Below are positions 21,777-41,730 of a stretch of 64,000 nt of DNA, in pieces. The DNA comes from Parcubacteria group bacterium (GTDB taxonomy: Bacteria; Patescibacteriota; Minisyncoccia; Moranbacterales; UBA2206). A program made the position numbers and the translations under genes. Where the stretch lies: positions 72 to 64,071 of the forward strand of contig JBAZUU010000005.1 in NCBI GenBank assembly GCA_041661275.1, written 5' to 3'. A model generated the notes under the pieces. The model was not told the DNA's origin, searched no databases, and was given only the letters and a program-made list of their open reading frames with translations. The first letter of the stretch is position 1; each line of letters begins with the position of its first letter.

Positions 21777-21787
21777 TGTGGTATAAT
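21777..21787 (+). promoter_or_regulatory. Extended -10 promoter TGTGGTATAAT
   Basis: TGnTATAAT 6 nt before leader element copy 1. Confidence 0.4.
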
Positions 21788-21792
21788 CAAAG

Positions 21793-21913
21793 CACGACTT
21801 GTCCTCTCACCAATTCCGCGAAAGATTTTCCAGGGAGAAAATCAGAAGACGAAGTCGCCTAGCGGCTTCAGTTGGTTGAATGGGGAAGTTTTTTCAAGAA
21901 TTGGTGAGGGGAT
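21793..21913 (+). promoter_or_regulatory. Pilus-locus leader element copy 1 (candidate cis-regulatory RNA / MITE)
   Basis: Outer stem CCTCTCACCAATTC...GAATTGGTGAGGGGAT, conserved core AGTCGCCTAGCGGCTTC. 24 nt upstream of the pilM ATG. Confidence 0.55.
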
Positions 21914-21936
21914 AAAAAAATAAAAACAATTAGAAA

Positions 21937-23004
21937 ATGTTTGGATTAAGTTTTGGAAAAAACGTCTTTGTTGGCGTTGATATTGGAACTTCCGCTATTA
22001 AGCTGGTTGAAATGAGAAACGATTCCGGAAAACCCGTACTTTCCAATTATGCTTGGGTGTCTTTTGACGGATATTTCCAGCGAGACGAAAACAACTCCCA
22101 GCTATACGAAACAATTTTGCCGGAATATATCAAGAAGATGATAAAAGAGTCGGGGATGAAAGGCAGAAAGGCCTGCGTTTCCATCCCGGCTTTTGGCGGG
22201 CTCATCACCCTTATTGAATTCCCGCCAATGGCCAAAGAGGATATGGAACAAGCAGTGCGGTTTGAAGCTCATAAATATGTTCCCACGTCGCTCGACGAAG
22301 TAGTTTTAAGTTGGGATATCATAAATCAAGTCGATCCGGGAAATAAGGAATTGCCCGACGGAAAAACGCAAGTGCTTCTGGTGGCGGCTTCCCGAAACAA
22401 AGTCATCAGATATGAAAAAATGATAACTGATTCAGGACTGAAGCTGGACTCAATTGAAATAGAAGGTTTTTCCATAGTCAGGTCGCTTATTGGCAACGAT
22501 CCGGGAAACTTCATCATTGCTGACATTGGTTCGAGAGTTTGCAATATCCTTCTGGTGGAAAAAGGAATAATCAGGGCTAACAGAAATATCGATGCCGGAG
22601 GAGAAGATATTACCAAAATCATTGCCAAGTCGATGTCAGTGACTGAAGAGAGGGCGGAAAAACTGAAGATAAGCGGAAAAGATTTTTTTGCCGCTGATTC
22701 ATATATCAAGTTTCCGGCGCTGGAACTCATTTCCAATGAGATTATCCGGATAACAAACGCCTATTCCAAAGACGGGCAAAAACTAAAAATCGACAGCGTC
22801 ATCCTTTCAGGAGGAACGGCGAAACTTGCCGGGCTTTGCCAGTATCTGACGCAGGTGTTGAAAATCAAAACTATAGTAGGCAATCCGTTCGGTCGCGTGA
22901 GTTTTGACAAAAAATTGGAGCCGGCGATAAGAGATATGGGAACAAAGTTTTCTGTTTCTGTCGGTCTGGCCATTAAGGAAATGGAACAAATTAAAAATAA
23001 ATAA
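21937..23004 (+). CDS. pilM: Type IV pilus assembly protein PilM (actin-like ATPase)
   Basis: VGVDIGTSAIKLVEM ... ADIGSRVCNILLVEKG ... VILSGGTAKL ASKHA-fold motifs. Confidence 0.85.
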   Translation: MFGLSFGKNVFVGVDIGTSAIKLVEMRNDSGKPVLSNYAWVSFDGYFQRDENNSQLYETILPEYIKKMIKESGMKGRKACVSIPAFGGLITLIEFPPMAKEDMEQAVRFEAHKYVPTSLDEVVLSWDIINQVDPGNKELPDGKTQVLLVAASRNKVIRYEKMITDSGLKLDSIEIEGFSIVRSLIGNDPGNFIIADIGSRVCNILLVEKGIIRANRNIDAGGEDITKIIAKSMSVTEERAEKLKISGKDFFAADSYIKFPALELISNEIIRITNAYSKDGQKLKIDSVILSGGTAKLAGLCQYLTQVLKIKTIVGNPFGRVSFDKKLEPAIRDMGTKFSVSVGLAIKEMEQIKNK

Positions 23005-23017
23005 ATAATAAAAAAAT

Positions 23018-23542
23018 ATGGCTAACATAAATTTGAGTACGGGCGAGGTGAGGGAAAAAGTTGATCTTAGCGTGGGTCAGGGCGGACTCGTCGCGCTTAT
23101 TGTCGTTCTGGTTCTGATTCTTGTCCTCTATGGAGTGGAAATTGTCTGGGGTCAGCAAATGACCAAAGATACGGAAGCGATCCAGACGGAGTTCAGCACA
23201 AAGTATAAAAATCTTTCCCAGGGAAATCCGATAACGGTAGTTGATTTTCAAAACCGTCTGACAGCCGCCAAGAAAATGGCGAGTGAAGGCAGGGATATCA
23301 GAGGAAGTCTTCTGGAAATCGAAAAGTCGATCATTCCCGGGGTATATCTTAAGGGATACGAGTTTGACCAAAAGGCCGGAACCATAGTTCTTACCTGCAT
23401 AGGGGACAACTACAATCTGGCGGCCAAACAGATACTTAATTTCAAAAAATCAACTTATTTTTCCGATGCTTCGGGCGGTGAGACTACTTTTGTAGCTGAA
23501 ACAGGAAAGGTGGAATTCAAGGTTAATTTAACATTAAAATAA
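23018..23542 (+). CDS. pilN: PilN-like bitopic pilus assembly protein
   Basis: Single TM after a short N-terminus; synteny pilM-N-O. Confidence 0.5.
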   Translation: MANINLSTGEVREKVDLSVGQGGLVALIVVLVLILVLYGVEIVWGQQMTKDTEAIQTEFSTKYKNLSQGNPITVVDFQNRLTAAKKMASEGRDIRGSLLEIEKSIIPGVYLKGYEFDQKAGTIVLTCIGDNYNLAAKQILNFKKSTYFSDASGGETTFVAETGKVEFKVNLTLK

Positions 23543-23591
23543 AGTATGCGAACGCGCACTACGAACGCGCACATACGAATAAAACAAAACT

Positions 23592-24383
23592 ATGAAAGTT
23601 AAAATTCTTCTTCCACCGCTGATCATCGTTTCCTGCATCGCCCTTATGGTCTGGCTGGTTTATCCGGCCTATACCAACGGAGTTGATGGATGGAAAGAAA
23701 AGAGAGATAAGTTGACCAGTGAAAAAAATAATCTGGATGATGCCCAGAAGAAAGCGGAAAATGTTTCCCGGATGGTGGCTCAACTGGGAAGCAACAAGGT
23801 TGATCAGGATACCATCGCGACCTACATTCCGGACGAGCTGAAAGAAGAGGAAATAATAGACAATCTCAATTTTATCGCCAGCAACGAAGGGCTTTCGGTT
23901 GTCAAACTTTCCGTAAAACCCGAAACCGTCGTCCAGCAGGAGGTACCGACTGATATGTCGGGTAATCCTGTAGTTGATGTTTCTGGAGGAAATCCATCTG
24001 CCACAGAGGATGTTACCGTCAAGGCCAAAAACTATAATGTGGAATTTTCTGTCGTTGGAAACTATGAAAAAATAAAAAATGTTTTGGACAAGGTGTATAA
24101 GCTCAAGCGGTATAATAGCTTCAAGACGCTTGAGATCGCGGCCAATGAAACACCGGGGGCTGATGGAAAAAAAGCCGCTCCTACCGACAGTCTGAAAGCG
24201 GATATGATTTTGAGTTTTGACGTCCTTAAAAAGTTCAGCCAGACAGTCAGCATGAACAATCCTATCTTTTCACAAACCAGTTTTGATATGAAAGTGGCTC
24301 AGGAAATTCGGGACAAGAAAAGCGTCGATGTTTTGAAAATGAGCATTGATCAGGCCGGAAGGACTAATCCGTTTATTCCCTAA
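23592..24383 (+). CDS. pilO: PilO-like pilus assembly protein
   Basis: N-terminal TM, coiled-coil, synteny. Confidence 0.5.
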   Translation: MKVKILLPPLIIVSCIALMVWLVYPAYTNGVDGWKEKRDKLTSEKNNLDDAQKKAENVSRMVAQLGSNKVDQDTIATYIPDELKEEEIIDNLNFIASNEGLSVVKLSVKPETVVQQEVPTDMSGNPVVDVSGGNPSATEDVTVKAKNYNVEFSVVGNYEKIKNVLDKVYKLKRYNSFKTLEIAANETPGADGKKAAPTDSLKADMILSFDVLKKFSQTVSMNNPIFSQTSFDMKVAQEIRDKKSVDVLKMSIDQAGRTNPFIP

Positions 24384-24408
24384 AAATCAAGAATAAGAAA
24401 GAAAAATA

Positions 24409-26118
24409 ATGAACTTACCATCCGGAAATGATTCTGATAAAAAAAGTGTCTCTGATGTCGCGTCAGACGTGGCAGAAAAAGCTGATCCCGGAAACGAGGG
24501 GCAGCCGGTTTTGAGCAAGAAAAAAAATACAATTGCCAGGCTGGACGAAGCGCCGGAGAAGATAAAAGAGGATGTCATCGGCCTCATTCCGGAAGAGGTG
24601 GCAAAAAAATATAAAATAGTCGCTTTTGAGAGGAAGGGAAATGTGGTGAAGGTGGCGATGGCTGATCCCCAGGATTTAGACGCGCTTAATGCTTTGCGAT
24701 TTGTGGCGGAAAAGGAAAAATTGGAAATAGAAGCTTTCCAGGTCTCGGAGGAAGTTTTGGAAGAAATATTCAAATTTTATTCCGGTCCGGGGGCGGTGAT
24801 AAAAAGCGCTGTGGCTTCCCTGAAAGACGATGTGCTGATAGAGGTTGATGATGGAAAAAAAAGCGACAAAAGAAGAGAAGAGCTGAAAGATGCTCCGGTG
24901 GCAAAATTAGTGCAGGTGATAATCAGTCATGCTATCGAAGGAAAGGCTAGCGATATTCATATCGAACCGATGGAAGAGGATTTTCGAGTGCGTTATCGAG
25001 TAGATGGAGTTCTGCACATCAGTCTGCTTCTTCCAAAAGAAATCGGGCCGGCCATAATTTCACGGATAAAAATTCTGGCTAATCTGAAAATAGATGAAAA
25101 AAGGAAACCGCAAGATGGGCGGTTCAGGTTGAATTTTAATGGTAATAATATCGATTTTCGTGTTTCTTCGCTCCCGGTTATCGAGGGAGAGAAGATAGTG
25201 ATGCGAATTTTGGATAAAGAAGAAGGCGTATCCAGCGTGGAAAAATTAGGGTTCTCCGGAACGGCGCTGGAAAATACCAGACTGGCTCTCAAGGAAACAT
25301 ACGGAATGATTCTTATGACCGGTCCGACCGGAAGCGGAAAATCAACCACTCTCTACGCGCTTTTAAAAATACTAAACAGCGAAGAAAGAAATATAATAAC
25401 ACTGGAAGATCCGATAGAATATTATATAGAAGGCCTGAACCAAAGTCAGATAAAGCCGGAAATCGGTTATACCTTTGCTAACGGTTTGCGTTCTGTATTG
25501 CGACAAGACCCCAATGTTATAATGGTGGGAGAAATACGCGATTCGGAAACGGCCGAGCTGGCGGTACACGTCGCGCTCACCGGGCACCTGATGTTTTCCA
25601 CGCTGCACACCAATACGGCCATCGGCGCCATTCCGCGGCTGATCGATATGGGCATAGAACCATTTTTGCTCTCATCATCTTTGCGATTAGTGATGGCGCA
25701 GAGGCTCGTGCGAAAGATCTGCGAGGATTGCAAGGAGGAAAAACAGGTTCCTGACGCGGTAAGACAAAAGATTACGGAAGAAATAAAAAGAATATCCCCG
25801 AAGGAACTGGAAAAATATGGGATAAAAATGACTGACAGACTGTCTTTTTTTCACGGAAAGGGATGTGATAAGTGTGGCGGAAAAGGGCTCAAGGGTCGAG
25901 TAGCGATCTTTGAAGCCGTGCCGATTTCAGACAAAATGAAGGATATTATCGTGGAAAAAAGAGGAAACGAGGATTTGCTGACAAAAGAACGGGATGCTAT
26001 GGGAATTCTAACCATAAAACAAGACGGACTTTTGAAAATAATAAAAGGCCTTACCACTGTTGAAGAAGTGGAAAGGGTAACGGAGGGTAATATCGCTCCG
26101 GTAGTGGAGAACGAATAA
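24409..26118 (+). CDS. pilB: Type IV pilus assembly ATPase PilB (GspE family)
   Basis: N-terminal T2SSE_N region, Walker A GPTGSGKSTT, Asp box, His box, CDKCGGKG tetracysteine. Confidence 0.9.
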   Translation: MNLPSGNDSDKKSVSDVASDVAEKADPGNEGQPVLSKKKNTIARLDEAPEKIKEDVIGLIPEEVAKKYKIVAFERKGNVVKVAMADPQDLDALNALRFVAEKEKLEIEAFQVSEEVLEEIFKFYSGPGAVIKSAVASLKDDVLIEVDDGKKSDKRREELKDAPVAKLVQVIISHAIEGKASDIHIEPMEEDFRVRYRVDGVLHISLLLPKEIGPAIISRIKILANLKIDEKRKPQDGRFRLNFNGNNIDFRVSSLPVIEGEKIVMRILDKEEGVSSVEKLGFSGTALENTRLALKETYGMILMTGPTGSGKSTTLYALLKILNSEERNIITLEDPIEYYIEGLNQSQIKPEIGYTFANGLRSVLRQDPNVIMVGEIRDSETAELAVHVALTGHLMFSTLHTNTAIGAIPRLIDMGIEPFLLSSSLRLVMAQRLVRKICEDCKEEKQVPDAVRQKITEEIKRISPKELEKYGIKMTDRLSFFHGKGCDKCGGKGLKGRVAIFEAVPISDKMKDIIVEKRGNEDLLTKERDAMGILTIKQDGLLKIIKGLTTVEEVERVTEGNIAPVVENE

Positions 26119-26203
26119 TAGTTTCTAAATTCACCCTGTTAAGTAATTTTTTCTTCAAAAATAAATTTTGCAAAGCAAAATTTACTTAACAGGGTAAAAA
26201 AAT

Positions 26204-26572
26204 ATGGCGAAAAAAATCCTTATAGTCGAAGACGATTCGTTTGTGATGGATATCTATCACACCAAGCTTACTCAGGAAGGTTTTAAAGTAAGCACCGCCG
26301 CCAATGGCATGGAAGCCTTGAAAAAACTGGAAAAAGAAAGGCCGGATCTGATTCTTCTGGACATCATTATGCCTTATGTGGACGGACTTGAAGTTTTGAA
26401 AAAGGTGAGAATGATGGAACAGATGAAAAGCGTTCCGATTATACTTCTCACCAACTTGAGCCAGAAAGAAGAAGTAGATGAGGGATTGGCGTTGGGGGCG
26501 AACGACTATCTCATTAAATCCCATTTTACTCCGTCAGAAGTTTTGGAAAAGATAAACAAATATTTAAAATAA
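26204..26572 (+). CDS. Single-domain response regulator (CheY-like receiver)
   Basis: ILIVEDD...DLILLDIIMP...K receiver motifs. Confidence 0.85.
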   Translation: MAKKILIVEDDSFVMDIYHTKLTQEGFKVSTAANGMEALKKLEKERPDLILLDIIMPYVDGLEVLKKVRMMEQMKSVPIILLTNLSQKEEVDEGLALGANDYLIKSHFTPSEVLEKINKYLK

Positions 26573-26575
26573 AAA

Positions 26576-27652
26576 ATGAGCACAGTTCACGCCGAACAAA
26601 GGATAAAAAATTTACTCCGCATGGTGGCGCAGGAAGGAGCGTCCGACCTCCATCTTGTCGTGGGAAGATATCCCACTTTTCGGGTTGACGGAAAATTAAT
26701 TCCTTTTAAAGAGGATAGCGTTCTTGCTCCGCCGGACACCAAAGCGATAAGCGAGGTGATTATGGGAGATGAAGCCAAAGCAAAATTTTTGAAAGAAGGC
26801 CAGATGGATTTTTCGTATAATTTCGAAGACAAAGCTCGTTTTCGCGTTAACGCTTTTTTCCAGCAAGGATATGTTAGCATCGCTTTCCGGCTCATTCCCA
26901 AAGAAATCAGGACGCTTCAGGAACTGAATATGCCGGAAGGACTTTATGAATTTACCAAGTTTTCCCAAGGACTTCTTTTGATCGTCGGTCCGGTAGGGCA
27001 TGGAAAATCAACCAGTCTCGCCGCTCTCATTAATGACATAAATCATAACCAGGAAAAGCACATCATAACCATCGAAGATCCGATAGAATATGTCTATGAA
27101 CAGGATAGATGCATCATCAATCAAAGGGAAATTTATCAGGATAGCCGTTCTTTTCAGGCGGCGCTGAAATCAGTTTTTCGCGAAGACGCCAACATTGTCC
27201 TTATCGGTGAGATGCGCGATCTGGATACGATCTCCACAGCAATGACGGCGGCGGAAACAGGGCATCTGATTTTAGCTACTCTCCACACCAACGATTCAGC
27301 GCAGACTATCGATCGTATTGTTGATGTTTTTCCGGCGCACCAGCAAAACCAGATCCGGTCGCAACTGGCCAATGTTCTTTTGGGAGTAGTGTCGCAGAGG
27401 CTCGTTCCACAGGTTGACGGCGGAAGAATCCCGGCGGTGGAGATAATGATAAAGAACCATGCTATTGAAAATCTCATCCGGGAGAATAAGTCGTATCAGA
27501 TGGACAATGTCATTGAAACCAGCTCGGGAAGCGGAATGATAACTCTCGATCGGTCGCTGACCAATCTGGTAAAACGCGGAGTGATTTCGGTTGATGCCGC
27601 TATGGCCTATGCCAAAGATCCGAAAAGTTTTCAGTCGCTTCTTAAATTCTGA
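26576..27652 (+). CDS. pilT: Twitching-motility retraction ATPase PilT
   Basis: GPVGHGKSTS Walker A; AIRNLIRE-type motif AIENLIRENK. Confidence 0.9.
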   Translation: MSTVHAEQRIKNLLRMVAQEGASDLHLVVGRYPTFRVDGKLIPFKEDSVLAPPDTKAISEVIMGDEAKAKFLKEGQMDFSYNFEDKARFRVNAFFQQGYVSIAFRLIPKEIRTLQELNMPEGLYEFTKFSQGLLLIVGPVGHGKSTSLAALINDINHNQEKHIITIEDPIEYVYEQDRCIINQREIYQDSRSFQAALKSVFREDANIVLIGEMRDLDTISTAMTAAETGHLILATLHTNDSAQTIDRIVDVFPAHQQNQIRSQLANVLLGVVSQRLVPQVDGGRIPAVEIMIKNHAIENLIRENKSYQMDNVIETSSGSGMITLDRSLTNLVKRGVISVDAAMAYAKDPKSFQSLLKF

Positions 27653-27680
27653 CCAGCTCTCTTGGGAAATATCAATTTTT

Positions 27681-27691
27681 TGTGGTATAAT
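27681..27691 (+). promoter_or_regulatory. Extended -10 promoter TGTGGTATAAT
   Basis: TGnTATAAT 17 nt before leader element copy 2. Confidence 0.4.
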
Positions 27692-27707
27692 AAAAACAGA
27701 CGGTATA

Positions 27708-27820
27708 ATCCCAGCACCAATTCCGACAAAGATTAGTGAAGTATAGAGATTAGTGCTCGGATTCGCCTGCGGCTTGACATCGAAATAAAAATAAATTAGT
27801 TTTGCGAATTGGTGCGGGAT
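27708..27820 (+). promoter_or_regulatory. Pilus-locus leader element copy 2
   Basis: ATCCCAGCACCAATTCC...ATTCGCCTGCGGCTTG...GAATTGGTGCGGGAT. 47 nt upstream of the pilC ATG 27867. Confidence 0.55.
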
Positions 27821-27866
27821 GCTCAATTTTGTAGCTACTCGCTTCGCTCGCAGACAAAATTGGCAA

Positions 27867-29078
27867 ATGCGATATAATTTTAAAGCTAAAACACAAGCAG
27901 GAGAAATAAAGGAAGGCACGATAGACGCGGCCAGTTCGGATGCCGCTCTTTCCATCCTTCAAAAGAATGGACTTTTTCCCATGAAGCTGGCTTCCGAAAG
28001 AGAAGGCGATTTTTTCACCAAGCTTTTTCTGAAATATTACGATCGGGTGACGGACAAGGAACAGATGATTTTTTTCAGGCAGTTAGCCATTCTCATCGAA
28101 GCTCGGGTGCCAATCATCGTTTCGCTTACCGCCATTGGTGAGCAATCAGTCAATCGCTATTTCAGCAAAGTAATCGCTGAAGTGGTCAATGATATAGATG
28201 ACGGAATGTCTCTTTCTGATGCTATGACGCGCCACAAGGATGTTTTTTCCAATCTGGCAATCAATATAATCCGAGCCGGTGAAACGTCCGGAAATCTGAA
28301 AAAATCAGTGGAATATGTGGCGGATAATATAGAAAAAAACTACAACCTGACCAGCCGGGTCAGAAGCGCCTTGATATATCCGGGTGTCATCCTTTTTGTC
28401 TTTTTCATTATCGGATTTATAACCATCTCTTTCATCTTGCCCAAACTGACGGAAATGATAAAAAGCATGAATGTGGAAGTGCCCTGGTACACCAAGCTGG
28501 TGATTGGAATCGGAGACTTCATGTCTTCCTACTGGTGGGCGGCGGCAATAATGATTATCGGATTTATCGGTGGCATTCTCTATTATCTGAAAACTCCTGA
28601 TGGCAAAAAAGAATGGGATTATATAAAGCTGAAACTGCCGCTTGTGGGAAATGTTTTCAGAGGAATATATATCGCCCGATTTGCAGAAAACCTCTCCGTG
28701 CTTCTTGTGGGCGGCATTCCCATTATTCGCGCTCTTACTGTGGTTAGCACGGTTATCAATAATTCGCTCTATGAAGATTTGCTTTTAAAGACGGCCGAAC
28801 AGGTGAAAGTTGGAGGATCAATGAGCGACACTCTGAAAAAAAGCTCTCTTATCCCGCCTGTCGTGGCGAATATGGTGAAGATCGGCGAAGAATCGGGGCA
28901 GATAGACTCAGTGCTGACTCACGTTGCTCGATTTTATGACCAGGAAACGGAGATAACGACAAAAAATTTGTCAACACTCATCGAACCGATTTTGATGGTA
29001 GTTATTGGTTTCGCGGTCGGGTTTATGGCGATTGCCATTTTGTTGCCGATATATAACGTGGCCAGCCAAATAAAATAA
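27867..29078 (+). CDS. pilC: Type IV pilus platform protein PilC (GspF family)
   Basis: Two T2SSF repeats. Start moved to ATG 27867 because the track start 27819 lies inside the leader element. Confidence 0.85.
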   Translation: MRYNFKAKTQAGEIKEGTIDAASSDAALSILQKNGLFPMKLASEREGDFFTKLFLKYYDRVTDKEQMIFFRQLAILIEARVPIIVSLTAIGEQSVNRYFSKVIAEVVNDIDDGMSLSDAMTRHKDVFSNLAINIIRAGETSGNLKKSVEYVADNIEKNYNLTSRVRSALIYPGVILFVFFIIGFITISFILPKLTEMIKSMNVEVPWYTKLVIGIGDFMSSYWWAAAIMIIGFIGGILYYLKTPDGKKEWDYIKLKLPLVGNVFRGIYIARFAENLSVLLVGGIPIIRALTVVSTVINNSLYEDLLLKTAEQVKVGGSMSDTLKKSSLIPPVVANMVKIGEESGQIDSVLTHVARFYDQETEITTKNLSTLIEPILMVVIGFAVGFMAIAILLPIYNVASQIK

Positions 29079-29118
29079 AAGATAGTTGATTAAGATAGAA
29101 AAATAAAAATAAAAAACT

Positions 29119-29258
29119 AGAAAGCGAGGTGTATTATGGCTAAAAAGAAAACAAAAAAGAAAAAAAAGAAAGGGTTTACCCTGATTGAACTTTTGATCGT
29201 TATCGCGATCATCGGAATTCTGGCTTCGATCGTTTTAGTGAGCTTGAGTAGCGCGAGA
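29119..29258. repeat. 140-bp segment identical to 29599-29738 (pilin 5' region)
   Basis: Includes RBS, Lys-rich leader and conserved pilin N-terminus. Confidence 0.9.
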
Positions 29259-29504: not shown

Positions 29505-29598
29505 TTTAACTTAAAAATTTTTATGCTTGCTGATTGATTTGAAAATCGGCAAGCAAATAAAATTCATTAAAGATAAAATAGTAACTAAATATTTATAT

Positions 29599-29738
29599 AG
29601 AAAGCGAGGTGTATTATGGCTAAAAAGAAAACAAAAAAGAAAAAAAAGAAAGGGTTTACCCTGATTGAACTTTTGATCGTTATCGCGATCATCGGAATTC
29701 TGGCTTCGATCGTTTTAGTGAGCTTGAGTAGCGCGAGA
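29599..29738. repeat. Second copy of the pilin 5' repeat
   Basis: Identical to 29119-29258. Confidence 0.9.
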
Positions 29739-30187: not shown

Positions 30188-30216
30188 TTGACAGAACATG
30201 ATGATTTGTGTATAAT
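30188..30216 (+). promoter_or_regulatory. Sigma70-type promoter TTGACA-17-TATAAT
   Basis: Perfect consensus hexamers 30 nt upstream of the DUF4143 gene. Confidence 0.45.
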
Positions 30217-30245
30217 TAGTACATAGATTAACTAAAAAGTATGTA

Positions 30246-31388
30246 TTGATAATACACAAATTTATGATTAAACGCTTTTTTAGCCCTCCTGAGCCATTAT
30301 TAGAGTCAAACAAAGTGCTTATTATTTATGGGCCGAGAAGGGTCGGAAAAACGACACTGCTTAAGGAACTGCTCGATAACACATCATTAAGATATCGTTT
30401 TGACTCCGGAGAAAATATTCGAGTTCAGGAAGTGCTTAGCTCAAATGATTTTGAAAAAATCAAAGAATATGTTGGAAACAACGAGTTGATAGCGATTGAC
30501 GAAGCGCAACAAATTCCTAATATTGGGATGGGACTAAAAATTATCATCGATCAGGTGCCGAAGATAAAAGTCGTAGTGACAGGGTCATCAAGCTTTGAAT
30601 TGTTTAATCAGATCGGAGAACCGCTCGTGGGAAGAAAAAAAACAATAACTTTGTTTCCGTTCGCGCAAGTGGAACTTGCCAAGATATATAATACTTTTGA
30701 TCTTGAAGGCAGGCTGAAAGAATTTCTCATATATGGAACCTACCCGGACGTATATCTCGCGAAGACGAAACATGAAAAGGAGACGCTCCTCAACGAAATC
30801 GTTGACGCTTATCTTTTGAAGGATGTTCTAGCGCTTGACGATGTGAAAAAATCACGTACACTTGTTGATTTGGTAAAATTGCTCGCGCTTCAAGTGGGAA
30901 GCGAGGTGTCGCTGAATGAACTGGCGCAACAGTTGAGCGCCAATGTACGTACCATCGAAAAATATCTTGATATATTGGAGAAAGGGTTTGTAATTATTTC
31001 TCTTTCAGCTTTGAAGCGCAATTTGCGCAATGAAATACGTGATAAAAGAAAATATTATTTTTACGATACTGGAGTGCGCAACGCTTTACTCTCGCAATTC
31101 AATGACGTGACGCTTCGTAATGATGTGGGCGCGCTGTGGGAGAATTTTCTTTTTATCGAGCGACTAAAAAAATGTTCCTATCGGTCGATGTTTGCCAACA
31201 GATATTTTTGGCGCACCTATGATCAAAAAGAACTGGATCTCATTGAGGAATATGATGGAATTTTTCATGCTTATGAATTCAAATGGAAAAAAGAAACTGC
31301 GCCGTATCCGAAAAAATTTATAGAAAGTTATCCACAATCTTCATTTGAAGTAATAAACAAGGATAATTATCGTGGTTTCGTGGCGTAG
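30246..31388 (+). CDS. AAA+ ATPase with DUF4143 domain
   Basis: Walker A GPRRVGKTT, DEAQ Walker B, DUF4143-like C-terminus. Paralogue at 51136. Confidence 0.75.
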   Translation: MIIHKFMIKRFFSPPEPLLESNKVLIIYGPRRVGKTTLLKELLDNTSLRYRFDSGENIRVQEVLSSNDFEKIKEYVGNNELIAIDEAQQIPNIGMGLKIIIDQVPKIKVVVTGSSSFELFNQIGEPLVGRKKTITLFPFAQVELAKIYNTFDLEGRLKEFLIYGTYPDVYLAKTKHEKETLLNEIVDAYLLKDVLALDDVKKSRTLVDLVKLLALQVGSEVSLNELAQQLSANVRTIEKYLDILEKGFVIISLSALKRNLRNEIRDKRKYYFYDTGVRNALLSQFNDVTLRNDVGALWENFLFIERLKKCSYRSMFANRYFWRTYDQKELDLIEEYDGIFHAYEFKWKKETAPYPKKFIESYPQSSFEVINKDNYRGFVA

Positions 31389-31489
31389 GTAAGATAATAC
31401 TGGGATAATTGGTTTCTTTGGACATGTTTAATCTAATTTGTGCATATCATTGTTTTTCATTCTTCTATTTTATGGTATAATTTGGACAG

Positions 31490-31996
31490 ATGAAAACGAA
31501 GAGAAAAAACAAAAAAGGCGTTACGCTTATTGAGCTGATGACTGCTATTGCCGTTATGGGGATTTTGGCGTCCATTGTTACGATAAGTCTTTCGGCGGGA
31601 AGACAAAAAGCCCAGGCGTCTTCGGTTCTCCAGTCAATGACGAGTGTCGCGCCGCTGGCGTATAAGTGTCTGACCAAGGGTACTTCGGACGCAAAAACCA
31701 GAATTAATATTGGCGCGTCGGGAAGTGATATTTGTTTAAATAGCGCTAGCGCCGTCGAACTTTCCAGCTGGCCGGATATAACAAGCACCGGTTGGAGTTA
31801 TGGTGGTGATTTTTACTGGTGCAAGGTAAATTATTCCGGAACGACTCATCCTACCGGATCTAATGTGTGTAATTATGCTGACGGCACTTGTGGCGGGGAC
31901 TGGACTAATAAGAAATTTTGTTATGGAATCAATAACACCACAACCGATCAGCATATCTGGTGTACTGATCAAGGATGCCAAAAAGAGGGATTTTAA
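31490..31996 (+). CDS. Type IV pilin-like protein
   Basis: MKTKRKNKKG | VTLIELMTAIAVMGILASI prepilin signal. Confidence 0.65.
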   Translation: MKTKRKNKKGVTLIELMTAIAVMGILASIVTISLSAGRQKAQASSVLQSMTSVAPLAYKCLTKGTSDAKTRINIGASGSDICLNSASAVELSSWPDITSTGWSYGGDFYWCKVNYSGTTHPTGSNVCNYADGTCGGDWTNKKFCYGINNTTTDQHIWCTDQGCQKEGF

Positions 31997-34040: not shown

Positions 34041-34616
34041 ATGGAAAAAATTTTTGAAAATAAAAAACGTTACAAAGGGTTTTCGCTGGTGGAAATGATT
34101 TTGGTCGTGGCGATTTCCGCTATCATTGCTTTGGCTGTCGGACAAATATTTTTGACCGGGATGAAAACTTCCGAAAGAAACAAGGAAATGCAAAAAAACC
34201 TGGAGGAAGGCCGGTCGGCAATGGAAATGATGGCCAAAGATATCAGGATGAGTAAACTGACTAAGGGCGACTCCACTAATATTTTTATGTATAACAATTC
34301 ACAAGGCAAATGTATCAGCTATCAGTTTGATAACACCAAGAAAAAACTTGGGGTGGATCGAATTTATCCCGATGCAGACGTAACTGACCCCAATAAGCTT
34401 ACTTGTAAAACTACTGCCACTTCTTATTCTTACAGTGATTTAACTTCAGTAAATATTACCGGCAATTTTTTTATACCATTTGAAACAAACAGAACAACCC
34501 CCCCTTATTCAATCGGTCGGGCGACTATCCGGATGACGATGGGAGACGGGACGGACATGGAAGAGACTCTGCAGACATCGATTTCATTCAGAGATTATGA
34601 GGATATTTTGCAATAA
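34041..34616 (+). CDS. Minor pilin (PilW-like)
   Basis: G|FSLVEMILVVAISAIIALAV. Confidence 0.65.
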   Translation: MEKIFENKKRYKGFSLVEMILVVAISAIIALAVGQIFLTGMKTSERNKEMQKNLEEGRSAMEMMAKDIRMSKLTKGDSTNIFMYNNSQGKCISYQFDNTKKKLGVDRIYPDADVTDPNKLTCKTTATSYSYSDLTSVNITGNFFIPFETNRTTPPYSIGRATIRMTMGDGTDMEETLQTSISFRDYEDILQ

Positions 34617-34629: not shown

Positions 34630-34742
34630 ATCCCGCACCAATTCCAATATGGCGCAGATATGGCCTAAGGAGTAGTGTGCGAATTCGCCTAACAGCTAAG
34701 TTTTAAATAAAAAATTAATATAACTGCGAATTGGTGCGGGAC
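34630..34742 (+). promoter_or_regulatory. Pilus-locus leader element copy 3
   Basis: ATCCCGCACCAATTCC...GAATTCGCCTAACAGC...GAATTGGTGCGGGAC. The track ORF start (TTG 34731) lies inside it. Confidence 0.55.
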
Positions 34743-34784
34743 ACTAAATTTTGTTTCCACTCGCCAAGCTCGCGGACAAAATTT

Positions 34785-35444
34785 GTGAAACACAAAGCAT
34801 CTATTCTGGCAGTAACGCTCATAACTTTGAGTATTATCCTTGTTACCGCGTTAGCCGTATCTTTGGCGGCGATAAAACAGAGGAACGCTTCTTTGGGATC
34901 GGGAAAATCCAATCTGGCTTTCCAAAACGCCGATACGGGCGTGGAAGAGGCGATGAATGAGATTACCGGAGGCACCAGCGCCACAGTTGGTGATGTATGC
35001 GGAAATTTACCTGGTACATATACGGGATATACTGTAAAATTTTTTGATAAAGATAATATTGAATTGAGTTGTTCAGGCGATGCTGGAAAATCAAAAAATG
35101 AAATAACTTCCATTAAATCAGTAGGTGTGGGAGCCAATCAAGAATCGAGAGCGATCGAAGCGGCAGTGGCGGCAGTGAAAAGCAGTAAAATTTGCGCCAC
35201 TTGGAATGGAAATGGTCTTCCCGATAAATCATTTGCTGATTATTTACCGGTTCCGATGAATTGGCAAATAGATGATTGTAAAAAGTGGGCCAAGCAAGTT
35301 TTTGATAATGCAAAAAATTCATACGCCGTAGGCTGTATTACGGATGAATCTGCCGGTAGCAACGGTGTTGTATTTGGTTCTTTTTGCGATACGACAAGTT
35401 GTGATGCAGATGCTCCGAGCGGAACAAAAAATTGCGGCTGGTAA
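34785..35444 (+). CDS. PilX-like minor pilin/adhesin
   Basis: GTG start. Hydrophobic N-terminus ASILAVTLITLSIILVTALAVSLAAI followed by a Cys-rich variable domain. Confidence 0.5.
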   Translation: MKHKASILAVTLITLSIILVTALAVSLAAIKQRNASLGSGKSNLAFQNADTGVEEAMNEITGGTSATVGDVCGNLPGTYTGYTVKFFDKDNIELSCSGDAGKSKNEITSIKSVGVGANQESRAIEAAVAAVKSSKICATWNGNGLPDKSFADYLPVPMNWQIDDCKKWAKQVFDNAKNSYAVGCITDESAGSNGVVFGSFCDTTSCDADAPSGTKNCGW

Positions 35445-35509
35445 TGGATAAATTTCCGCGATCTTTGCAAACAGGCCTGGTTTGGCCTGTTTTTTGTATT
35501 AATATATGA

Positions 35510-37753
<2,244 letters not shown>

Positions 37754-37772
37754 GTTTTTTGAGGTTTCCTTG

Positions 37773-37842
37773 GTTTCTTAGGTTACTTAAGTTGCTTACG
37801 ACTCGCCAAAATTTTTGCTTCGCAAAAACTTAGGCGAGAGAA
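37773..37842. repeat. CTTAGG-motif element + UUCG-loop hairpin upstream of gatC
   Basis: gtttcttaggttacttaagttgcttacgac then imperfect hairpin actcgccaaaatttttgc-ttcg-gcaaaaacttaggcgag. Confidence 0.55.
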
Positions 37843-37847
37843 GGATT

Positions 37848-38129
37848 ATGATCTCGAAAGATGAAGTAAAACATATCGCGGAACTGGCGAGGATTGGACT
37901 GGACAAAAAAGAGATCGAAAAGTTTTCGACTGATTTGTCGTCTATTTTGGACTGGATAGAGCAGTTGAAAGAAGTGGATATTGAGAATGTTGAGGCAATA
38001 GGGCATATTACGGGGATGGAAAATATCACGCGGAAGGATAAAACTCATGAATTTGATAATACTAGCGGAATCAAGGAATTGTTTCCAGAGGAAAAGGATG
38101 GATATGACAAGGTGAAGAGCGTTTTGTAG
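37848..38129 (+). CDS. gatC: Glu/Asp-tRNA amidotransferase subunit GatC
   Basis: MISKDEVKHIAELARIGL...LDWIEQLKEVD are typical GatC. ATG 37848. Confidence 0.8.
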   Translation: MISKDEVKHIAELARIGLDKKEIEKFSTDLSSILDWIEQLKEVDIENVEAIGHITGMENITRKDKTHEFDNTSGIKELFPEEKDGYDKVKSVL

Positions 38130-38130
38130 G

Positions 38131-38191
38131 ATTCTTAGGACTCTTAGGTTACTTACGACCCGCCCAAATTTTGCAGACAAAACTTGGGCGG
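38131..38191. repeat. CTTAGG-motif element + hairpin upstream of gatA
   Basis: attcttaggactcttaggttacttacgacc then hairpin cccgcccaaattttg-cagac-aaaacttgggcggg. Confidence 0.55.
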
Positions 38192-38199
38192 GAGAAAAA

Positions 38200-39675
38200 A
38201 TGATTAGAGAGCTACACGAAAAATTAATAAACGGCAAAATTACTTCTGTTGAATTGACACAGCAGTATTTTGACGCGATTGAAAAAAAAGACAAAGATAT
38301 ATTTGCATACCTGACACTTACAAAAGACCTGGCCATGGAACAGGCCAAAAAAGTGGATGAAAAAATTGCGCGGGGTGAGAAAATAGAACTACTCGAGGGT
38401 ATTCCAGGCGCGATAAAGGATGTTATTTGCACTGAAGGTGTACGCACTACTGCCGGATCGAAAATACTGGACAACTATATCGCTCCGTATGACGCAACGG
38501 CGGTAAAAAATCTGAGAAGTTTAGGCGCGGTCATTTTGGGCAAAACCAATTGTGATGAGTTTGCCATGGGATCGAGCACAGAAAACAGCGCCTATGGCCC
38601 GACAAAAAATCCACACGACCTGACTCGAGTGCCAGGCGGAACTTCCGGAGGATCAGCGGCGGCTATTGCGGCTGATATGGCAGTGTGGACGCTGGGAACA
38701 GATACTGGCGGTTCGATCAGGCAACCATCGTCACTTTGCGGAACAGTTGGGCTAAAACCAACTTACGGTCGGGTGTCACGCTATGGCCTCATCGCGGCCG
38801 CATCAAGTTTTGATTGTATTGGTCCTATCGCAAAAACAGTTGAAGACGCGGCCATTATCCTTTCGGCTATTTCCGGGCAGGATAAAAATGACGCCACTTC
38901 CGCGCATTCCAGTGACAAAAAATATGAAGACTATCTGACAGGAGTTGTGAGGGGAATGAAAATCGGAGTGGTGAAAGAATATCTGAAAGAGTTGAAAGAG
39001 GACGTTAGAAAAGTTATGGAAGAGGTGATAGAAAAATATAAAAAATTGGGAGCGGAAATTGTTGAAATTGAATTGCCGTATAATAAATATGCCTTGCCGG
39101 CTTACTACATAATCCAGCCTTCAGAAGTCAGCTCGAATTTGGCGAGATTTGACGGAGTGAAATACGGATTGAGAGTAAACGATGCAAAGGATTCTGTTGG
39201 AGATCGGGGAGATAAGGGGGATTGGGGAAATATGCCGAAAACTCTTCTGGAAACATATTTGGATACCAGGAAATATGGGTTAGGCGCTGAAGCGAAAAGA
39301 AGAATAATGCTGGGGACTTACGCGCTGTCATCCGGATATTATGAAGCGTATTATGTCCGGGCGCAAAAAGTCCGCGCGCTTATCAGGAAAGACTTTGAAA
39401 GAATATTTAATGAAGTAGATCTTATCCTGACTCCGACGACGACTGGCCCGGCGTTTAAGATTGGAGAAAAAATAGACGATCCGTTAGTCATGTATTTGGA
39501 AGATATTTTTACGGTTCCTGCCAACATCACCGGCGTACCGGCTATTTCCGTTCCAGCAGGCGTGGTAGAATTAGAAGGCAAGAAATTGCCTATCGGATTC
39601 CAACTTATGGGGAAATGGTTTGATGAAGAAAATTTGTTGCGCGCGGCGCACGCGTGGGAGAACGTATCCGTCTGA
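38200..39675 (+). CDS. gatA: Glutamyl-tRNA(Gln) amidotransferase subunit A
   Basis: Amidase signature GGSSGGSAAAIAA and Ser-cisSer-Lys region. In-frame purine-rich insert around 39190-39240. Confidence 0.9.
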   Translation: MIRELHEKLINGKITSVELTQQYFDAIEKKDKDIFAYLTLTKDLAMEQAKKVDEKIARGEKIELLEGIPGAIKDVICTEGVRTTAGSKILDNYIAPYDATAVKNLRSLGAVILGKTNCDEFAMGSSTENSAYGPTKNPHDLTRVPGGTSGGSAAAIAADMAVWTLGTDTGGSIRQPSSLCGTVGLKPTYGRVSRYGLIAAASSFDCIGPIAKTVEDAAIILSAISGQDKNDATSAHSSDKKYEDYLTGVVRGMKIGVVKEYLKELKEDVRKVMEEVIEKYKKLGAEIVEIELPYNKYALPAYYIIQPSEVSSNLARFDGVKYGLRVNDAKDSVGDRGDKGDWGNMPKTLLETYLDTRKYGLGAEAKRRIMLGTYALSSGYYEAYYVRAQKVRALIRKDFERIFNEVDLILTPTTTGPAFKIGEKIDDPLVMYLEDIFTVPANITGVPAISVPAGVVELEGKKLPIGFQLMGKWFDEENLLRAAHAWENVSV

Positions 39676-39846
39676 GAAATCAAAAATTTTCTCGAAATTG
39701 AACTCGAATCATGAATTTTCTAGCCAAAAATTTCCCTCAATCAAAGGCTGCCACAGGAAATTTTTGGAGAAAATTCAGATTCTCAAACAGTAATTTCTCA
39801 AAATTTTTTGATTTCTCAGTCGTTTATTTAATATAAAATAAAAAAT

Positions 39847-40407
39847 ATGGACACTTCCGGCAATATTATGGCGGACGTAACTAATTCGCTTTTGTATTTC
39901 TATAACTCGACGACTTTTTCGGTTATCAAGTTTATCATTGGAATATATGTGGCGGTGATTTTTGTCGACATCATTCTTTTTCTTTTTCAACGGGGATTGG
40001 GCGGGGATGTCCGCGATACGCGGCTTGGTATGAACGTTCCTAAGGAGTTTCTAAGAAAAAAGCCGCGGCAAAAATTGGCGATGCGATGGAAAAAATTAAG
40101 AGAAGAAATAGAAACAGGAGAAAATAATAAAATAAAAGTAGCCATAATTTCTGCTGACGACATAATAGCGAACCTTATTCGACGAATGTATGCCGGAGCG
40201 CCGTTTGCCAAAAAAGAGATTCCGATCGATGAGATGCTAAACGCCATTCCGGACGGACAGATAGAGAATATGGCGGATATAAAAAACTCTCATTTGGAAA
40301 GAAACAGGATTATCCATGATGAGAGTTTCCATCCAACCAAAGAAGAAGCGTACGAAATCTTAGCGCCTTTTGAAGAATTTTTACGCTATCATGGGGTGCT
40401 GGATTGA
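39847..40407 (+). CDS. Hypothetical membrane-anchored protein
   Basis: ORF with N-terminal TM. Confidence 0.5.
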   Translation: MDTSGNIMADVTNSLLYFYNSTTFSVIKFIIGIYVAVIFVDIILFLFQRGLGGDVRDTRLGMNVPKEFLRKKPRQKLAMRWKKLREEIETGENNKIKVAIISADDIIANLIRRMYAGAPFAKKEIPIDEMLNAIPDGQIENMADIKNSHLERNRIIHDESFHPTKEEAYEILAPFEEFLRYHGVLD

Positions 40408-40540
40408 CAAAGCAGGATTTTACGGATAAAATAGAGAGCAGTCTTTGTATTTATATATATAGCGGGGTGGAGTCCCGCCAAGGCGGGAGTAACTCGCAGT
40501 ACAATGACTATGAGTAAATTTAAGTTTAGCTTGAAAACAT

Positions 40541-40614
40541 AGCGGGGTGGAGCAGTCTGGTAGCTCGCGTGGCTCATAACCACGAGGTCGCCGGTTCAAA
40601 TCCGGCCCCCGCAA
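40541..40614 (+). tRNA. Initiator tRNA-fMet (CAT)
   Basis: AGCGGGGTGGAGCAGTCTGGTAGCTCG...CTCATAA...GGTTCAAATCCGGCCCCCGCAA. Unpaired 1:72 (A:A) is initiator-like. Confidence 0.75.
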
Positions 40615-40678
40615 CATTGAAGTTGATATATTTTCGAACTAGCCGTATAATTAATGCATAACATATACGGTAGGTTTT

Positions 40679-41356
40679 ATGTCAAAATCAAAGGAACAAC
40701 TTTTAGCTCGCGATTTAAGAAAAAAGGGACTAAGTATAAACGAAATCTCGAGAAGGCTTAAGGTTTCGAAAAGCTCTGTTAGTCGCTGGTGTTCCGATAT
40801 TCAGTTGTCCAAAAAGCAGATTAAAATCCTGCATGACCAAATGGTCAGGGGAAGTTACAAGGGTAGAATGATCGGAGTAGAAATTCAAAAGCAGAGGAAG
40901 AAGAAAAAAATTGAAGAATGTTTATTAAGGGCAAAAAAAGATATTCCAATTCTGACGAAAAGAGAGTTATTCATTGCGGGGTTATCGCTTTATTGGGGAG
41001 AAGGAGCGAAAAATTGTTCCAATGTTCGGTTATATAATTCCGATCCATTTGTGATAAAGCTCATTATGAAATGGTTCAGAGAGTCATTGAATATTAAGGA
41101 TGATGAATTTCAGATGTATGTAAATGTTAACGGAATCCACAAGAATAGATCGGATGACATAATTAAATATTGGTCAAAAATAACCAAAGTTCCTACAAAT
41201 CAGTTTAGAAAACCTACCCTTATTAAGGTGAAAAATAAGAAGATTTATGAGAATTTTAACGAACACTACGGAACGCTCTCAATCAGAATCGCTAAGAGTA
41301 AGTACTTACTTTATCAGATTTTAGGGTGGATAGAGGCATTGGGTGAGGCAGGGTAG
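40679..41356 (+). CDS. HTH-domain protein with LAGLIDADG-like motif (possible homing-endonuclease relative)
   Basis: N-terminal LSINEISRRLKVSKSSVSRWC HTH; FIAGLSLYWGEGAK resembles LAGLIDADG. Embedded among tRNA genes. Confidence 0.45.
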   Translation: MSKSKEQLLARDLRKKGLSINEISRRLKVSKSSVSRWCSDIQLSKKQIKILHDQMVRGSYKGRMIGVEIQKQRKKKKIEECLLRAKKDIPILTKRELFIAGLSLYWGEGAKNCSNVRLYNSDPFVIKLIMKWFRESLNIKDDEFQMYVNVNGIHKNRSDDIIKYWSKITKVPTNQFRKPTLIKVKNKKIYENFNEHYGTLSIRIAKSKYLLYQILGWIEALGEAG

Positions 41357-41420
41357 CTCAGTTGGTTAGAGCACGGCACTCATAAGGCCGGGGTCAAGAG
41401 TTCGAGTCTCTTCCCTGCTA
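41347..41420 (+). tRNA. tRNA-Met or tRNA-Ile2 (CAT)
   Basis: GGCAGGGTAGCTCAGTTGGTTAGAGC, loop CTCATAA, GAGTTCGAGTCTC. Confidence 0.75.
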
Positions 41421-41438
41421 CAAAATTAAATAATAATT

Positions 41439-41512
41439 GGGGGCGTAGCTCAGTTGGTTAGAGCGATTGCCTGTCACGCAATAGGTCGAGGGTTCGAGTC
41501 CCTTCGCTCCCG
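41439..41512 (+). tRNA. tRNA-Asp (GTC)
   Basis: GGGGGCGTAGCTCAGTTGGTTAGAGC, loop CTGTCAC, GGGTTCGAGTCCC. Confidence 0.85.
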
Positions 41513-41526
41513 CAAAATCATTGAAA

Positions 41527-41552
41527 TAGCCCGTGTTTAGGCTATTTTTTGA
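41527..41552 (+). terminator. Rho-independent terminator after the tRNA pair
   Basis: atagcc-cgtgttt-aggctat hairpin + TTTTTT. Confidence 0.5.
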
Positions 41553-41564
41553 TGCCAAAAAGGC

Positions 41565-41593
41565 TTGCAAATATCCGAAAAAAAGACTATAAT
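41565..41593 (+). promoter_or_regulatory. Sigma70-type promoter TTGCAA-17-TATAAT
   Basis: 15 nt upstream of leader element copy 4. Confidence 0.4.
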
Positions 41594-41608
41594 TAACAGG
41601 TAATATCG

Positions 41609-41719
41609 ATCCCTACACCAATTTCAGGAGGGGTTATCCGAGGGAAAAACAGGAAAACAAATTCGCCTGACGGCTTTAATTAGCTGAAATAAAAGACTTT
41701 ACAAAAATTGGTGAGGGAT
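41609..41719 (+). promoter_or_regulatory. Leader element copy 4
   Basis: ATCCCTACACCAATTTC...AAATTCGCCTGACGGCTTTA...AAATTGGTGAGGGAT. 12 nt upstream of ATG 41731. Confidence 0.55.
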
Positions 41720-41730
41720 AAACATAAAAT

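Follow-up and report, generated by a model that had tools for sequence, protein, structure and literature searches.

The window analyzed here is a 64,000-nt stretch of DNA from a Parcubacteria group bacterium (GenBank assembly GCA_041661275.1, contig JBAZUU010000005.1) that carries a type IV pilus locus. According to Pfam, the genes run pilM-pilN-pilO-pilB-receiver-pilT, then pilC-pilins-pilD-pilins and then an unknown open reading frame (ORF), ligA and gatA. Set into this order are copies of a structured repeat that we call the type A element (inverted arms plus a core, ~112 to 114 nt), with copy 1 in the pilM leader, copy 2 between pilT and pilC, and copy 3 between the last pilin genes and the unknown ORF. 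A preliminary description of this DNA had assigned all four copies to the pilus locus and had proposed that they represent either a novel cis-regulatory RNA of the pilus genes or a domesticated miniature inverted-repeat transposable element (MITE). Copy 4, however, lies outside the locus, with three tRNA genes upstream and a 123-amino-acid ORF (no Pfam match) and gyrB downstream. The repeats belong, as type A members, to a large family of insertion modules with palindromic ends that is found in Candidatus Moranbacteria (Parcubacteria, candidate phyla radiation, or CPR). Members of this family share an anatomy, a prevailing orientation, a position close to start and stop codons, a covarying second hairpin, a patchy distribution and a grouping by lineage.

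The strict arm pattern CACCAATT-N60-90-AATTGGTG has exactly four matches in the window, all on the plus strand (Table 1), and none in 100 dinucleotide shuffles of the window, which bears out the number and the single orientation originally described. The placement just 5' of start codons was likewise correct, the distances being ~23 nt to the pilM ATG (21937), 46 nt to the pilC ATG (27867), 43 nt to the probable GTG start (34785) of a PilX-like gene and 11 nt to the ATG at 41731. An alignment of the four copies extends over ~114 nt, and neither the arms nor the TCGCCT...GCT core varies in it. A type A covariance model (R1), scored on both strands, gave the window copies 73 to 105 bits in the sense direction versus 31 to 43 bits in the antisense direction.

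Identical extended -10 boxes (TGTGGTATAAT) precede copies 1 and 2, and TTGCAA-17-TATAAT precedes copy 4, as already reported. Copy 3 begins 11 nt past the stop codon of a pilin-like gene (34041-34616) and has no promoter-like site. A consensus scan detected no promoter within any of the four copies, and none of them is associated with a terminator-like site on the sense strand, the 3' flanks being AUAAA or GCUC. Approximately 40 to 50 nt upstream of the pilM -10 box lies a TGTGGATAACTT box (21732-21743), the reverse complement of the DnaA-box-like TTATCCACA. The same box is found upstream of pilM in L002, L003, L004, L006, L007, L014 and L016, with or without the leader element, and within an inverted repeat in L007 (18936-19026). 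Here and below, L numbers label loci of relatives and metagenomic contigs, and the fetched loci total 1.16 Mb.

Every copy folds better than its shuffled controls (z scores of -7.2, -2.7, -4.0 and -4.3 for copies 1 to 4), and the closing stem is real, at 12 to 17 bp. Its consensus, (A/U)CCC(N)GCACCAAUU ... AAUUGGUGCGGG(A/U), is almost invariant. In an alignment of copies, the arms are 98.8% paired, with one G.U among 420 cells, and where they vary they do so by Watson-Crick double changes without G.U intermediates. Across the family, the arms form perfect helices of 12 to 21 bp, stretching to ~25 to 29 bp in copies 1 and 2 if mismatches are allowed (the 5' arm of copy 2 has a bulged A, CCCAGCACC), a geometry that resembles that of RNase III substrates, and the elements are 62 to 160 nt long and contain no ORF. 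Within the interior of ~75 nt, the sequence varies freely except in a central mini-hairpin, (Y)CGCC-loop-GGCU, and the A/U-rich stretch behind it. The conserved core noted in the preliminary description takes the form TTCGCCT-N2-3-GGCT in copies 1, 2 and 4, whereas copy 3 has AGCT, which leaves one pair broken (GCC..AGC). Since the GCC/GGC of the mini-hairpin is otherwise invariant, it provides no evidence for or against pairing. RNAalifold returned the arms and this invariant 3-bp hairpin only, and an internal helix (P2, CCGA/UCGG) that had looked promising by eye was rejected because its pairing was just 51 to 61%.

Related copies occur in other genomes and in metagenomes, so the claim of a recurrent structured element near start codons that is conserved beyond this genome holds. 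A metagenome pattern scan gave more than 118 matches, a lower bound, at least 109 of them with at least 9 bp of perfect arm, and the metagenome-derived counts given here (for the type A set and for tRNA cargo) are counts among the matches listed. Typical arms in these elements (at least 109) read (A)CCCCGCACCAWUU/AAWUGGUGCGGGG(U). The architecture of the 40 type A copies among the matches listed is uniform, with a span of 96 to 105 nt and the core at position 47 to 54, and there is a single long outlier, L044, with its core at position 89. A scan of viral contigs gave four matches, mostly chance-looking.

The block downstream of copies 2 and 3 that the preliminary description had recognized as common to both is a genuine covarying hairpin, which we refer to as hairpin 2. 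Across 24 copies, its stem comprises 12 bp, and 8 of the 12 pairs show compensatory double changes. In most of these copies the AUG (columns 47-49) pairs with a CAU (columns 9-11), and in the rest it lies at most 4 nt from the stem. The ortholog of the PilX-like gene in L004 begins MAKNIKNKLSKA, in the same place. The loop is conserved and C/U-rich, CUCGCU(U/C)CGCUCGC. Covariation, which had been named as a means of checking the element, is thus present in hairpin 2 and absent from the helices of the element interior. The covariation and the fixed register with respect to the start codon imply that there is selection on the structure of hairpin 2. It is found in most type A copies, abutting the 3' arm, and essentially never without a type A element. 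The possibility that it serves as an independent insertion target was rejected because the two are essentially always joined. Copies 1 and 4 have no hairpin 2, and in copy 1 a 22-nt A-rich spacer leads up to the pilM ATG.

Hairpin 2 places the start codon in or close to a stem, as do translation-occluding hairpins of the RNA-thermometer type. Its stems are A/U-rich, the 72-nt stretch past the 3' arm has a predicted stability of approximately -9 to -25 kcal/mol in copies with hairpin 2, and the genes behind these copies are housekeeping rather than heat-shock genes. A Shine-Dalgarno sequence is missing from most genes in the window, and their starts are A-rich or near-leaderless, so initiation at an AUG covered by a stem is out of the ordinary for this organism. 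TATAAT boxes end 7 to 9 nt before the ATGs of ligA (35500-35524) and of a pilin-like gene (31468-31492), a spacing that suggests that these two mRNAs may be leaderless. GCGAGGUG is confined to two pilin genes (at 29136 and 29616). The tandem pilin genes are identical to each other over 141 nt at the 5' end, leader and N-terminal coding sequence included (29118-29258 and 29598-29738).

The genes downstream of the wider set of copies were identified by Pfam, by blastp for the pil genes and otherwise by eye. Pfam confirmed genes for L14, S5, L27, NusA, a class I aminoacyl-tRNA synthetase (W/Y) and GAPDH, and blastp identified pilM, pilB, pilC and pilin-like genes. The recA-, nusB-, glyS- and galT-like genes were called by eye only, Pfam having assigned no family to the short N-terminal fragments. 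Specificity for type IV pilus genes is therefore not upheld, and neither is a general linkage to promoters, since about half of the type A copies are intercistronic, beginning 2 to 20 nt past a stop codon. Among the upstream genes recognized by Pfam, the distance from stop codon to element is 8 nt for L24, 11 nt for S3, 12 nt for L18 (with S5 downstream) and 8 nt for L32. Copies behind the EF-Ts and S15 genes begin 51 and 53 nt past the stop codon, respectively. Where a start codon was sought within 130 nt downstream, 24 elements were co-oriented only, 3 were anti-oriented only, 1 had starts in both directions and 7 were uninformative.

The composition of this gene set largely refutes the idea that the repeats are a ligand- or protein-sensing, riboswitch-like RNA that co-regulates type IV pilus genes. 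That idea drew on four co-oriented copies before gene starts, three of them in the pilus locus, and on the conserved core, and elements do occupy the pilM, pilC and pilX-like leaders of L004, L007 and L014. The downstream genes are functionally incoherent, however, and the same leaders are empty in most relatives. The structure does not suggest a ligand-sensing fold either: beyond the arms and the 3-bp mini-hairpin there is no conserved multi-helix core and no covarying internal helix, and interior identity averages 48%. As the preliminary description had indicated, no known riboswitch family is recognizable: Rfam 15 at the gathering threshold gave only tRNA matches in the whole window, and at E<10 copy 1 had only chance-level matches. 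We therefore regard a pilus riboswitch as very improbable.

Least probable of all, in our view, is a switch at the level of DNA, in the form of an inverton or of paired operator sites for a regulator or recombinase. Invertons in 5' untranslated regions are known in Clostridioides difficile, and inverted repeats of 12 to 21 bp around a segment of 40 to 140 bp beside genes for surface structures, in a window that encodes a large serine recombinase (2335-3873), have the appearance of such a switch. Essentially one orientation is seen in ~35 independent assemblies, however, and in the window the sense strand of all four copies outscores the antisense strand by a wide margin. Moreover, housekeeping genes follow most copies, tRNA genes too are flanked by the arms and no recombinase gene adjoins the copies.

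The distribution of the element among relatives was followed in PilC-anchored loci of 16 species-level genomes with conserved synteny, a comparison that also places the window organism in Candidatus Moranbacteria. The pilC leader contains the element in L004 and L007 and lacks it in 13 of the 15 readable relatives, which keep a TGGTATAAT promoter and a short A-rich leader. The pilM leader contains it in L004, L007 and L014 and lacks it, with the promoter kept, in 9 of 12 relatives. Additional copies precede a pilin-like gene and the PilX-like gene in L004, which has at least six members overall. In a tree of PilB, PilT and PilC, the carriers (the window; L004 and L007; L014) are interleaved with noncarriers. 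Interior identity is 44% between pilM copies and 45% between pilX copies, against a mean of 48% over all pairs, and copies before different genes are up to 67 to 81% identical, so that copies cluster by lineage and not by downstream gene. The patchy leaders, the interleaved carriers and the low identity at orthologous sites together argue for lineage-wise spread and against an old, inherited gene-specific leader. A lookup of strain variants by exact protein match gave two contigs, both 100% identical to the window and hence no comparison of filled and empty sites.

Several other hairpins lie in the loci of relatives. In L004, the pilC leader element has a 79-nt family member (9896-9982) inserted in the loop of its hairpin 2, a clear nested insertion. 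In four lineages, two of them without type A leaders, short arm-type hairpins (CCCC-N-ACCAACUUU...AAGGUUGGUG-N-GGGG) immediately follow the major pilin gene and may act as 3' stabilizers or terminators. Hairpins with different arms (ACCCCAGUUAAAU/AUUUAACGGGGU) make up another family, found in the L006 pilC leader (~9560-9650) and in an L004 spacer (8161-8219), and yet other long, G/C-clamped hairpins are found in L004 (3433-3535) and L007 (3758-3826).

A relaxed arm pattern, with ends (A/G)UCCC-N-CACCA ... UGGUG-N-GGGAU, adds three members (E1 to E3) to the four type A copies of the original census, which had missed them, for a total of seven in the 64-kb window. None of the three is adjacent to pilus genes. 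E1 begins 3 nt past the stop codon of a minus-strand VanW-like gene and is upstream of a promoter-like TTGACT-17-TAATAT site for a minus-strand tRNA cluster. The arm motif occurs in the window solely as close inverted pairs, never singly, and a reading of it as a DNA uptake sequence was rejected on that basis. In the region 2335-3957, a gene for a large serine recombinase (Resolvase, Recombinase and zinc-ribbon domains) adjoins a four-tRNA cluster and E1, and its ORF enters a minus-strand tRNA-Arg(TCG) gene (3874-3949), a junction that may be the boundary of an integrated element.

E3 encloses an intact tRNA gene and itself splits a second, outer tRNA-like gene, in which the anticodon stem has two A.C mismatches, with no damage to the acceptor, D, variable or T arm. 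ARAGORN, with its intron mode included, made no call for this outer tRNA, and an exhaustive excision scan at E3 was too permissive to define the junction. Complete tRNA genes (Arg, Leu, Thr, Val, Phe, Ala, Pro, Tyr and Lys) were also found inside the arms of 16 of 109 metagenomic elements among the matches listed. In at least 10 cases, including E3 and L003, the flanks form a second tRNA once the element is excised. In 10 of 10 cases the inner and outer tRNAs point the same way, and the outer anticodon is the same as the inner one in L036, L094, L095, L123, L129 and L134. Since the arms are constant across different tRNAs, the suggestion that they derive from the 3' end of each host tRNA itself was rejected. 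A recurring two-hairpin module, GUCGCCUCNNCGGCGAC-CCGCNGANGAGGCGGG, is present in the 5' parts of outer tRNAs (L003, ~2900-2950; L050, in the 5' flank of the element at 1243-1373; and the 5' flank in L110), and the first of the two hairpins is similar to the type A core UUCGCCUNNCGGCUU. The tRNA-Pro genes of the window (19823 and 20429) were considered as carriers of the arm family and rejected; each is preceded by a copy of a 77-nt repeat of a different family, 92% identical, with a CCCTCTCCTGTCAGCC...GGCTGACATCCTCTCCC hairpin (19716-19789 and 20301-20377).

Table 1. Coordinates of type A elements, associated features and further family members (window positions unless a locus label is given)
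Feature	Position	Strand	Remarks
Type A copy 1	21801-21914	+	pilM 5' leader; strict arm match 21808-21906; R1, 75.2 bits (+) versus 42.7 bits (-)
Type A copy 2	27708-27821	+	pilC 5' leader; strict arm match 27715-27814; R1, 104.8 bits
Type A copy 3	34630-34743	+	Intercistronic; strict arm match 34636-34736; R1, 82.7 bits
Type A copy 4	41609-41720	+	Leader of 123-amino-acid ORF; strict arm match 41616-41713; R1, 73.3 bits
Extended -10 promoter TGTGGTATAAT	21777-21787	+	14 nt upstream of copy 1
Extended -10 promoter TGTGGTATAAT (with TTGGGA-18)	27681-27691	+	Upstream of copy 2
Promoter-like TTGCAA-17-TATAAT	41565-41593	+	Upstream of copy 4
Hairpin 2 of copy 2	27820-27865	+	UGCUCAAUUUUGU, loop AGCUACUCGCUUCGCUCGCAG, ACAAAAUUGGCA; abuts 3' arm; ends 1 nt before pilC ATG
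Hairpin 2 of copy 3	34742-34787	+	Probable GTG start of PilX-like gene at 3' end
E1	4288-4358		Short, arms only (UCUCCCACCACUUUUUU/AAAAAAGUGGUGGGGGA)
E2	6364-6429		Short, 21-bp perfect stem (AUCCCCCACCACUUUUUCACU); ~27 nt upstream of minus-strand Hsp20 ATG
E3	18721-18879	+	159 nt, 20-bp perfect stem (UCCCGCACCAUUUUUCAUUU); encloses intact tRNA-Ser(UGA), 18769-18856
Outer class II tRNA-like gene (Ser type, CCA encoded)	18687-18932	+	Halves 18687-18720 and 18880-18932, split by E3 in anticodon arm
Hairpins 3' of major pilin gene	L001 6224-6294; L002 12281-12351; L004 11888-11961; L007 11832-11919		
Outer tRNA split at T loop	L134, L123, L036		
Outer tRNA split at D/anticodon junction	L094, L095, L129, L093		
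Outer tRNA split in anticodon loop	E3, L003, L110		
Nested tRNA loci	L003 2900-3130; L110 1-240; L134, L123, L036, L094, L095, L129, L093, L050, L062, L120		

The nested tRNAs raise the possibility of an intron-like element, in which the arm-bounded segment would be excised from RNA and the flanks rejoined, restoring the outer tRNAs and stripping the leader from mRNAs. Several outer tRNAs are nearly intact, with perfect acceptor and T arms in E3, L003, L094 and L129, and the uniform co-orientation also speaks for an intron, as does the recurrence of the same nest, a His-like outer and a Pro inner tRNA, in two organisms (L003 and L110). The 5' CYUG and 3' UGAA flanks, moreover, lengthen the helix only via G.U pairs of the sense strand. 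Other outer copies are decayed, however (L036 has lost its 3' acceptor strand, L062 has no T arm and L120 is a fragment), and precise removal of the palindrome gives noncanonical loops, of 12 nt in E3 and, in L003, of 7 nt only with a 7-bp stem. Inspection of the tRNA junctions revealed no bulge-helix-bulge, the internal loop lying directly at the base of the long helix without 3-nt bulges 4 bp apart, and there was no group I or group II signature, Rfam having matched neither intron family in the window. The transposing tRNA introns of Thermoproteales and the split tRNAs of Nanoarchaeum are also short insertions at several noncanonical positions, with G/C-rich complements joining the halves. 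Unlike the bacterial elements described here, which have no bulge-helix-bulge, they have such motifs, cut by the archaeal splicing endonuclease, and they are not known to have a second tRNA inside.

The inner anticodon mostly equals the outer one, as expected under replacement. We favor replacement of a resident tRNA gene by an arm-flanked tRNA cassette over splicing, and we consider the intron-like reading improbable. A broader proposal, which we put forward tentatively and think more likely wrong than right, is that the family is a new mobile, structure-defined CPR cassette whose helix, CCCCGCACCAWUU / AAWUGGUGCGGGG, delivers either a leader with a start-codon hairpin or a complete tRNA gene. 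The tRNA cassettes would enter the loops of resident tRNAs (T loop, D/anticodon junction or anticodon loop), usually with the same anticodon, and would replace the resident gene or form a new class of tRNA-containing bacterial introns. In the literature on MITEs, nested tRNAs and short tRNA introns in Patescibacteria and Parcubacteria, we found only group I introns and no description of these elements.

The closest precedents for the family are Correia elements, ERIC elements and REPINs. The RNase III hairpins of T7-type phages are repeated between cistrons and behind promoters, set the mature ends of mRNAs and affect downstream translation. They are fixed in one phage genome, whereas the family described here is dispersed and patchy and its cleavage is putative. 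REPINs are REP doublets mobilized by RAYT transposases. Like the type A elements, they consist of two inverted conserved sequences and a spacer that form a hairpin of ~100 nt, and they are nonautonomous and persist within lineages (PMC3116915, PMC3337134). REP itself is a small palindrome, however, whereas the arms described here (CCCCGCACCAAUU) have no internal palindrome, and REPINs have no reported link to start codons and no reported tRNA cargo. No RAYT gene was seen here, no search aimed at one having been made. The ERIC/IRU repeats of enterobacteria and Yersinia are similar in being imperfect palindromes (~127 bp) in transcribed intergenic regions, where their RNA hairpins alter the stability of the flanking mRNA (PMC10969869). 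They differ from the present family, found in another phylum, in having no sequence similarity to it; here the interior is not conserved and the position is locked to start codons.

The Correia elements of Neisseria (CREE/NEMIS) are ~100 to 155 bp long, have terminal inverted repeats (TIRs) around a conserved core and are present in many intergenic copies that are co-transcribed with their neighbors and vary in presence between related genomes (PMC2649163; PMC10969869). Their TIR hairpin is bound and then cleaved or protected by RNase III (PMC2649163; PMC10969869). The two families are nevertheless unrelated in sequence, the host is not Neisseria and the arms are 12 to 21 bp here versus 26 bp there. 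Correia elements duplicate a TA target, whereas the flanks here are not TA...TA. No promoter or IHF motifs were recognized in the present family, which is set apart further by its strict orientation, its fused start-codon hairpin and its tRNA-enclosing arms.

Our preferred reading, to which we assign a probability of roughly 0.5, is that the type A element is a mobile hairpin module of the Correia/ERIC/REPIN kind, transcribed with the downstream gene, in which the helix would be a determinant of processing or stability and hairpin 2 would gate initiation. Transcription would start at a promoter immediately 5' of the module or, for intercistronic copies, run through it as a spacer, and the module would act at the RNA level. 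The long G/C-clamped helix would determine processing, stability or both, either through cleavage by a double-strand-specific RNase, as with RNase III and the Correia elements, or as a protective 5' hairpin. Hairpin 2 would gate translation initiation by pairing with the AUG, in a host that otherwise starts on unstructured A-rich or leaderless mRNAs. The module would spread within lineages by mobility and would be retained, and possibly co-opted, in one orientation.

Several considerations weigh against this reading. We infer RNA processing and translational gating, and likewise co-transcription, from the anatomy of the module and the Correia precedent. The conservation of arm sequence and pairing is as compatible with a protein that recognizes a DNA or RNA sequence as it is with an RNA helix. 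An AUG-occluding hairpin before highly expressed, essential genes, such as those for ribosomal proteins and aminoacyl-tRNA synthetases, is hard to reconcile with simple repression, and two of the four window copies do without hairpin 2. The orientation bias could reflect purifying selection against harmful orientations, with no positive function. As to mobility, direct repeats of 3 to 6 nt indicative of a target-site duplication did not exceed the shuffled expectation. The 1.16 Mb of fetched loci contained neither an autonomous parent, sought as arms 260 to 6,000 nt apart enclosing an ORF, nor genuine solo arms. There was a marginal excess of 2-nt flanking repeats (15 versus 7.3 expected, with a shuffle maximum of 19). 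The label of domesticated MITE was close to the mark with regard to inverted repeats, dispersed copies and patchy presence but not with regard to target-site duplication.

Selfish, nonautonomous mobile DNA of the MITE or REPIN type would account for much of the same evidence with no host function, the arms being TIRs recognized by a transposase and the biases being those of tolerated insertions. The sequence-invariant arms, with Watson-Crick pairs only and double changes that bypass G.U, speak for such DNA, and so do the patchiness at orthologous sites, the nested insertion in L004, the clustering by lineage and the presence of members 3' of genes and inside tRNA genes. We nevertheless consider it rather unlikely that this is the whole explanation. 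The compensatory covariation of hairpin 2 and its fixed start-codon register argue against it, as do the orientation count of 24 versus 3 and the retention of copies in tightly packed ribosomal-protein operons, and the failure to find a target-site duplication, or an autonomous partner in the 1.16 Mb of fetched loci, counts against purely selfish DNA as well.

Three further structures in the window lie apart from the type A copies. A G/C-clamped hairpin, CCCGCCCAAAUUUUGCAGACAAAACUUGGGCGGG (38154-38197), stands directly 5' of gatA and is followed by a GGAG Shine-Dalgarno sequence; the type A model scores it weakly, at 17.6 bits. The spacer between gatA and the ORF that follows contains a 31-nt inverted repeat (39669-39822) whose arms are 84% complementary and separated by 92 nt. 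A gene for a DUF4143/AAA_14 ATPase (30246-31388) is inserted amid the pilin genes, and a 22-nt imperfect palindrome (30204-30261) overlaps its TTG start.

The repeats thus carry no specific message about pilus regulation, and the reading of them shifts to that of a generic mobile leader or spacer module of Moranbacteria. CPR genomes are tiny and repeats are expected to be rare in them, yet this family fills many core-gene leaders and intercistronic spacers. The tRNA-enclosing relatives explain why standard finders miss some tRNA genes, and they suggest an unrecognized route of tRNA gene turnover. If our preferred reading is true, the module would be a lineage-wide, portable posttranscriptional unit combining a processing or stability helix with a start-codon gate, and its motif would help annotators to mark true start codons. 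It would then bear on translation start and operon segmentation in the CPR, where most genes are without a Shine-Dalgarno sequence.

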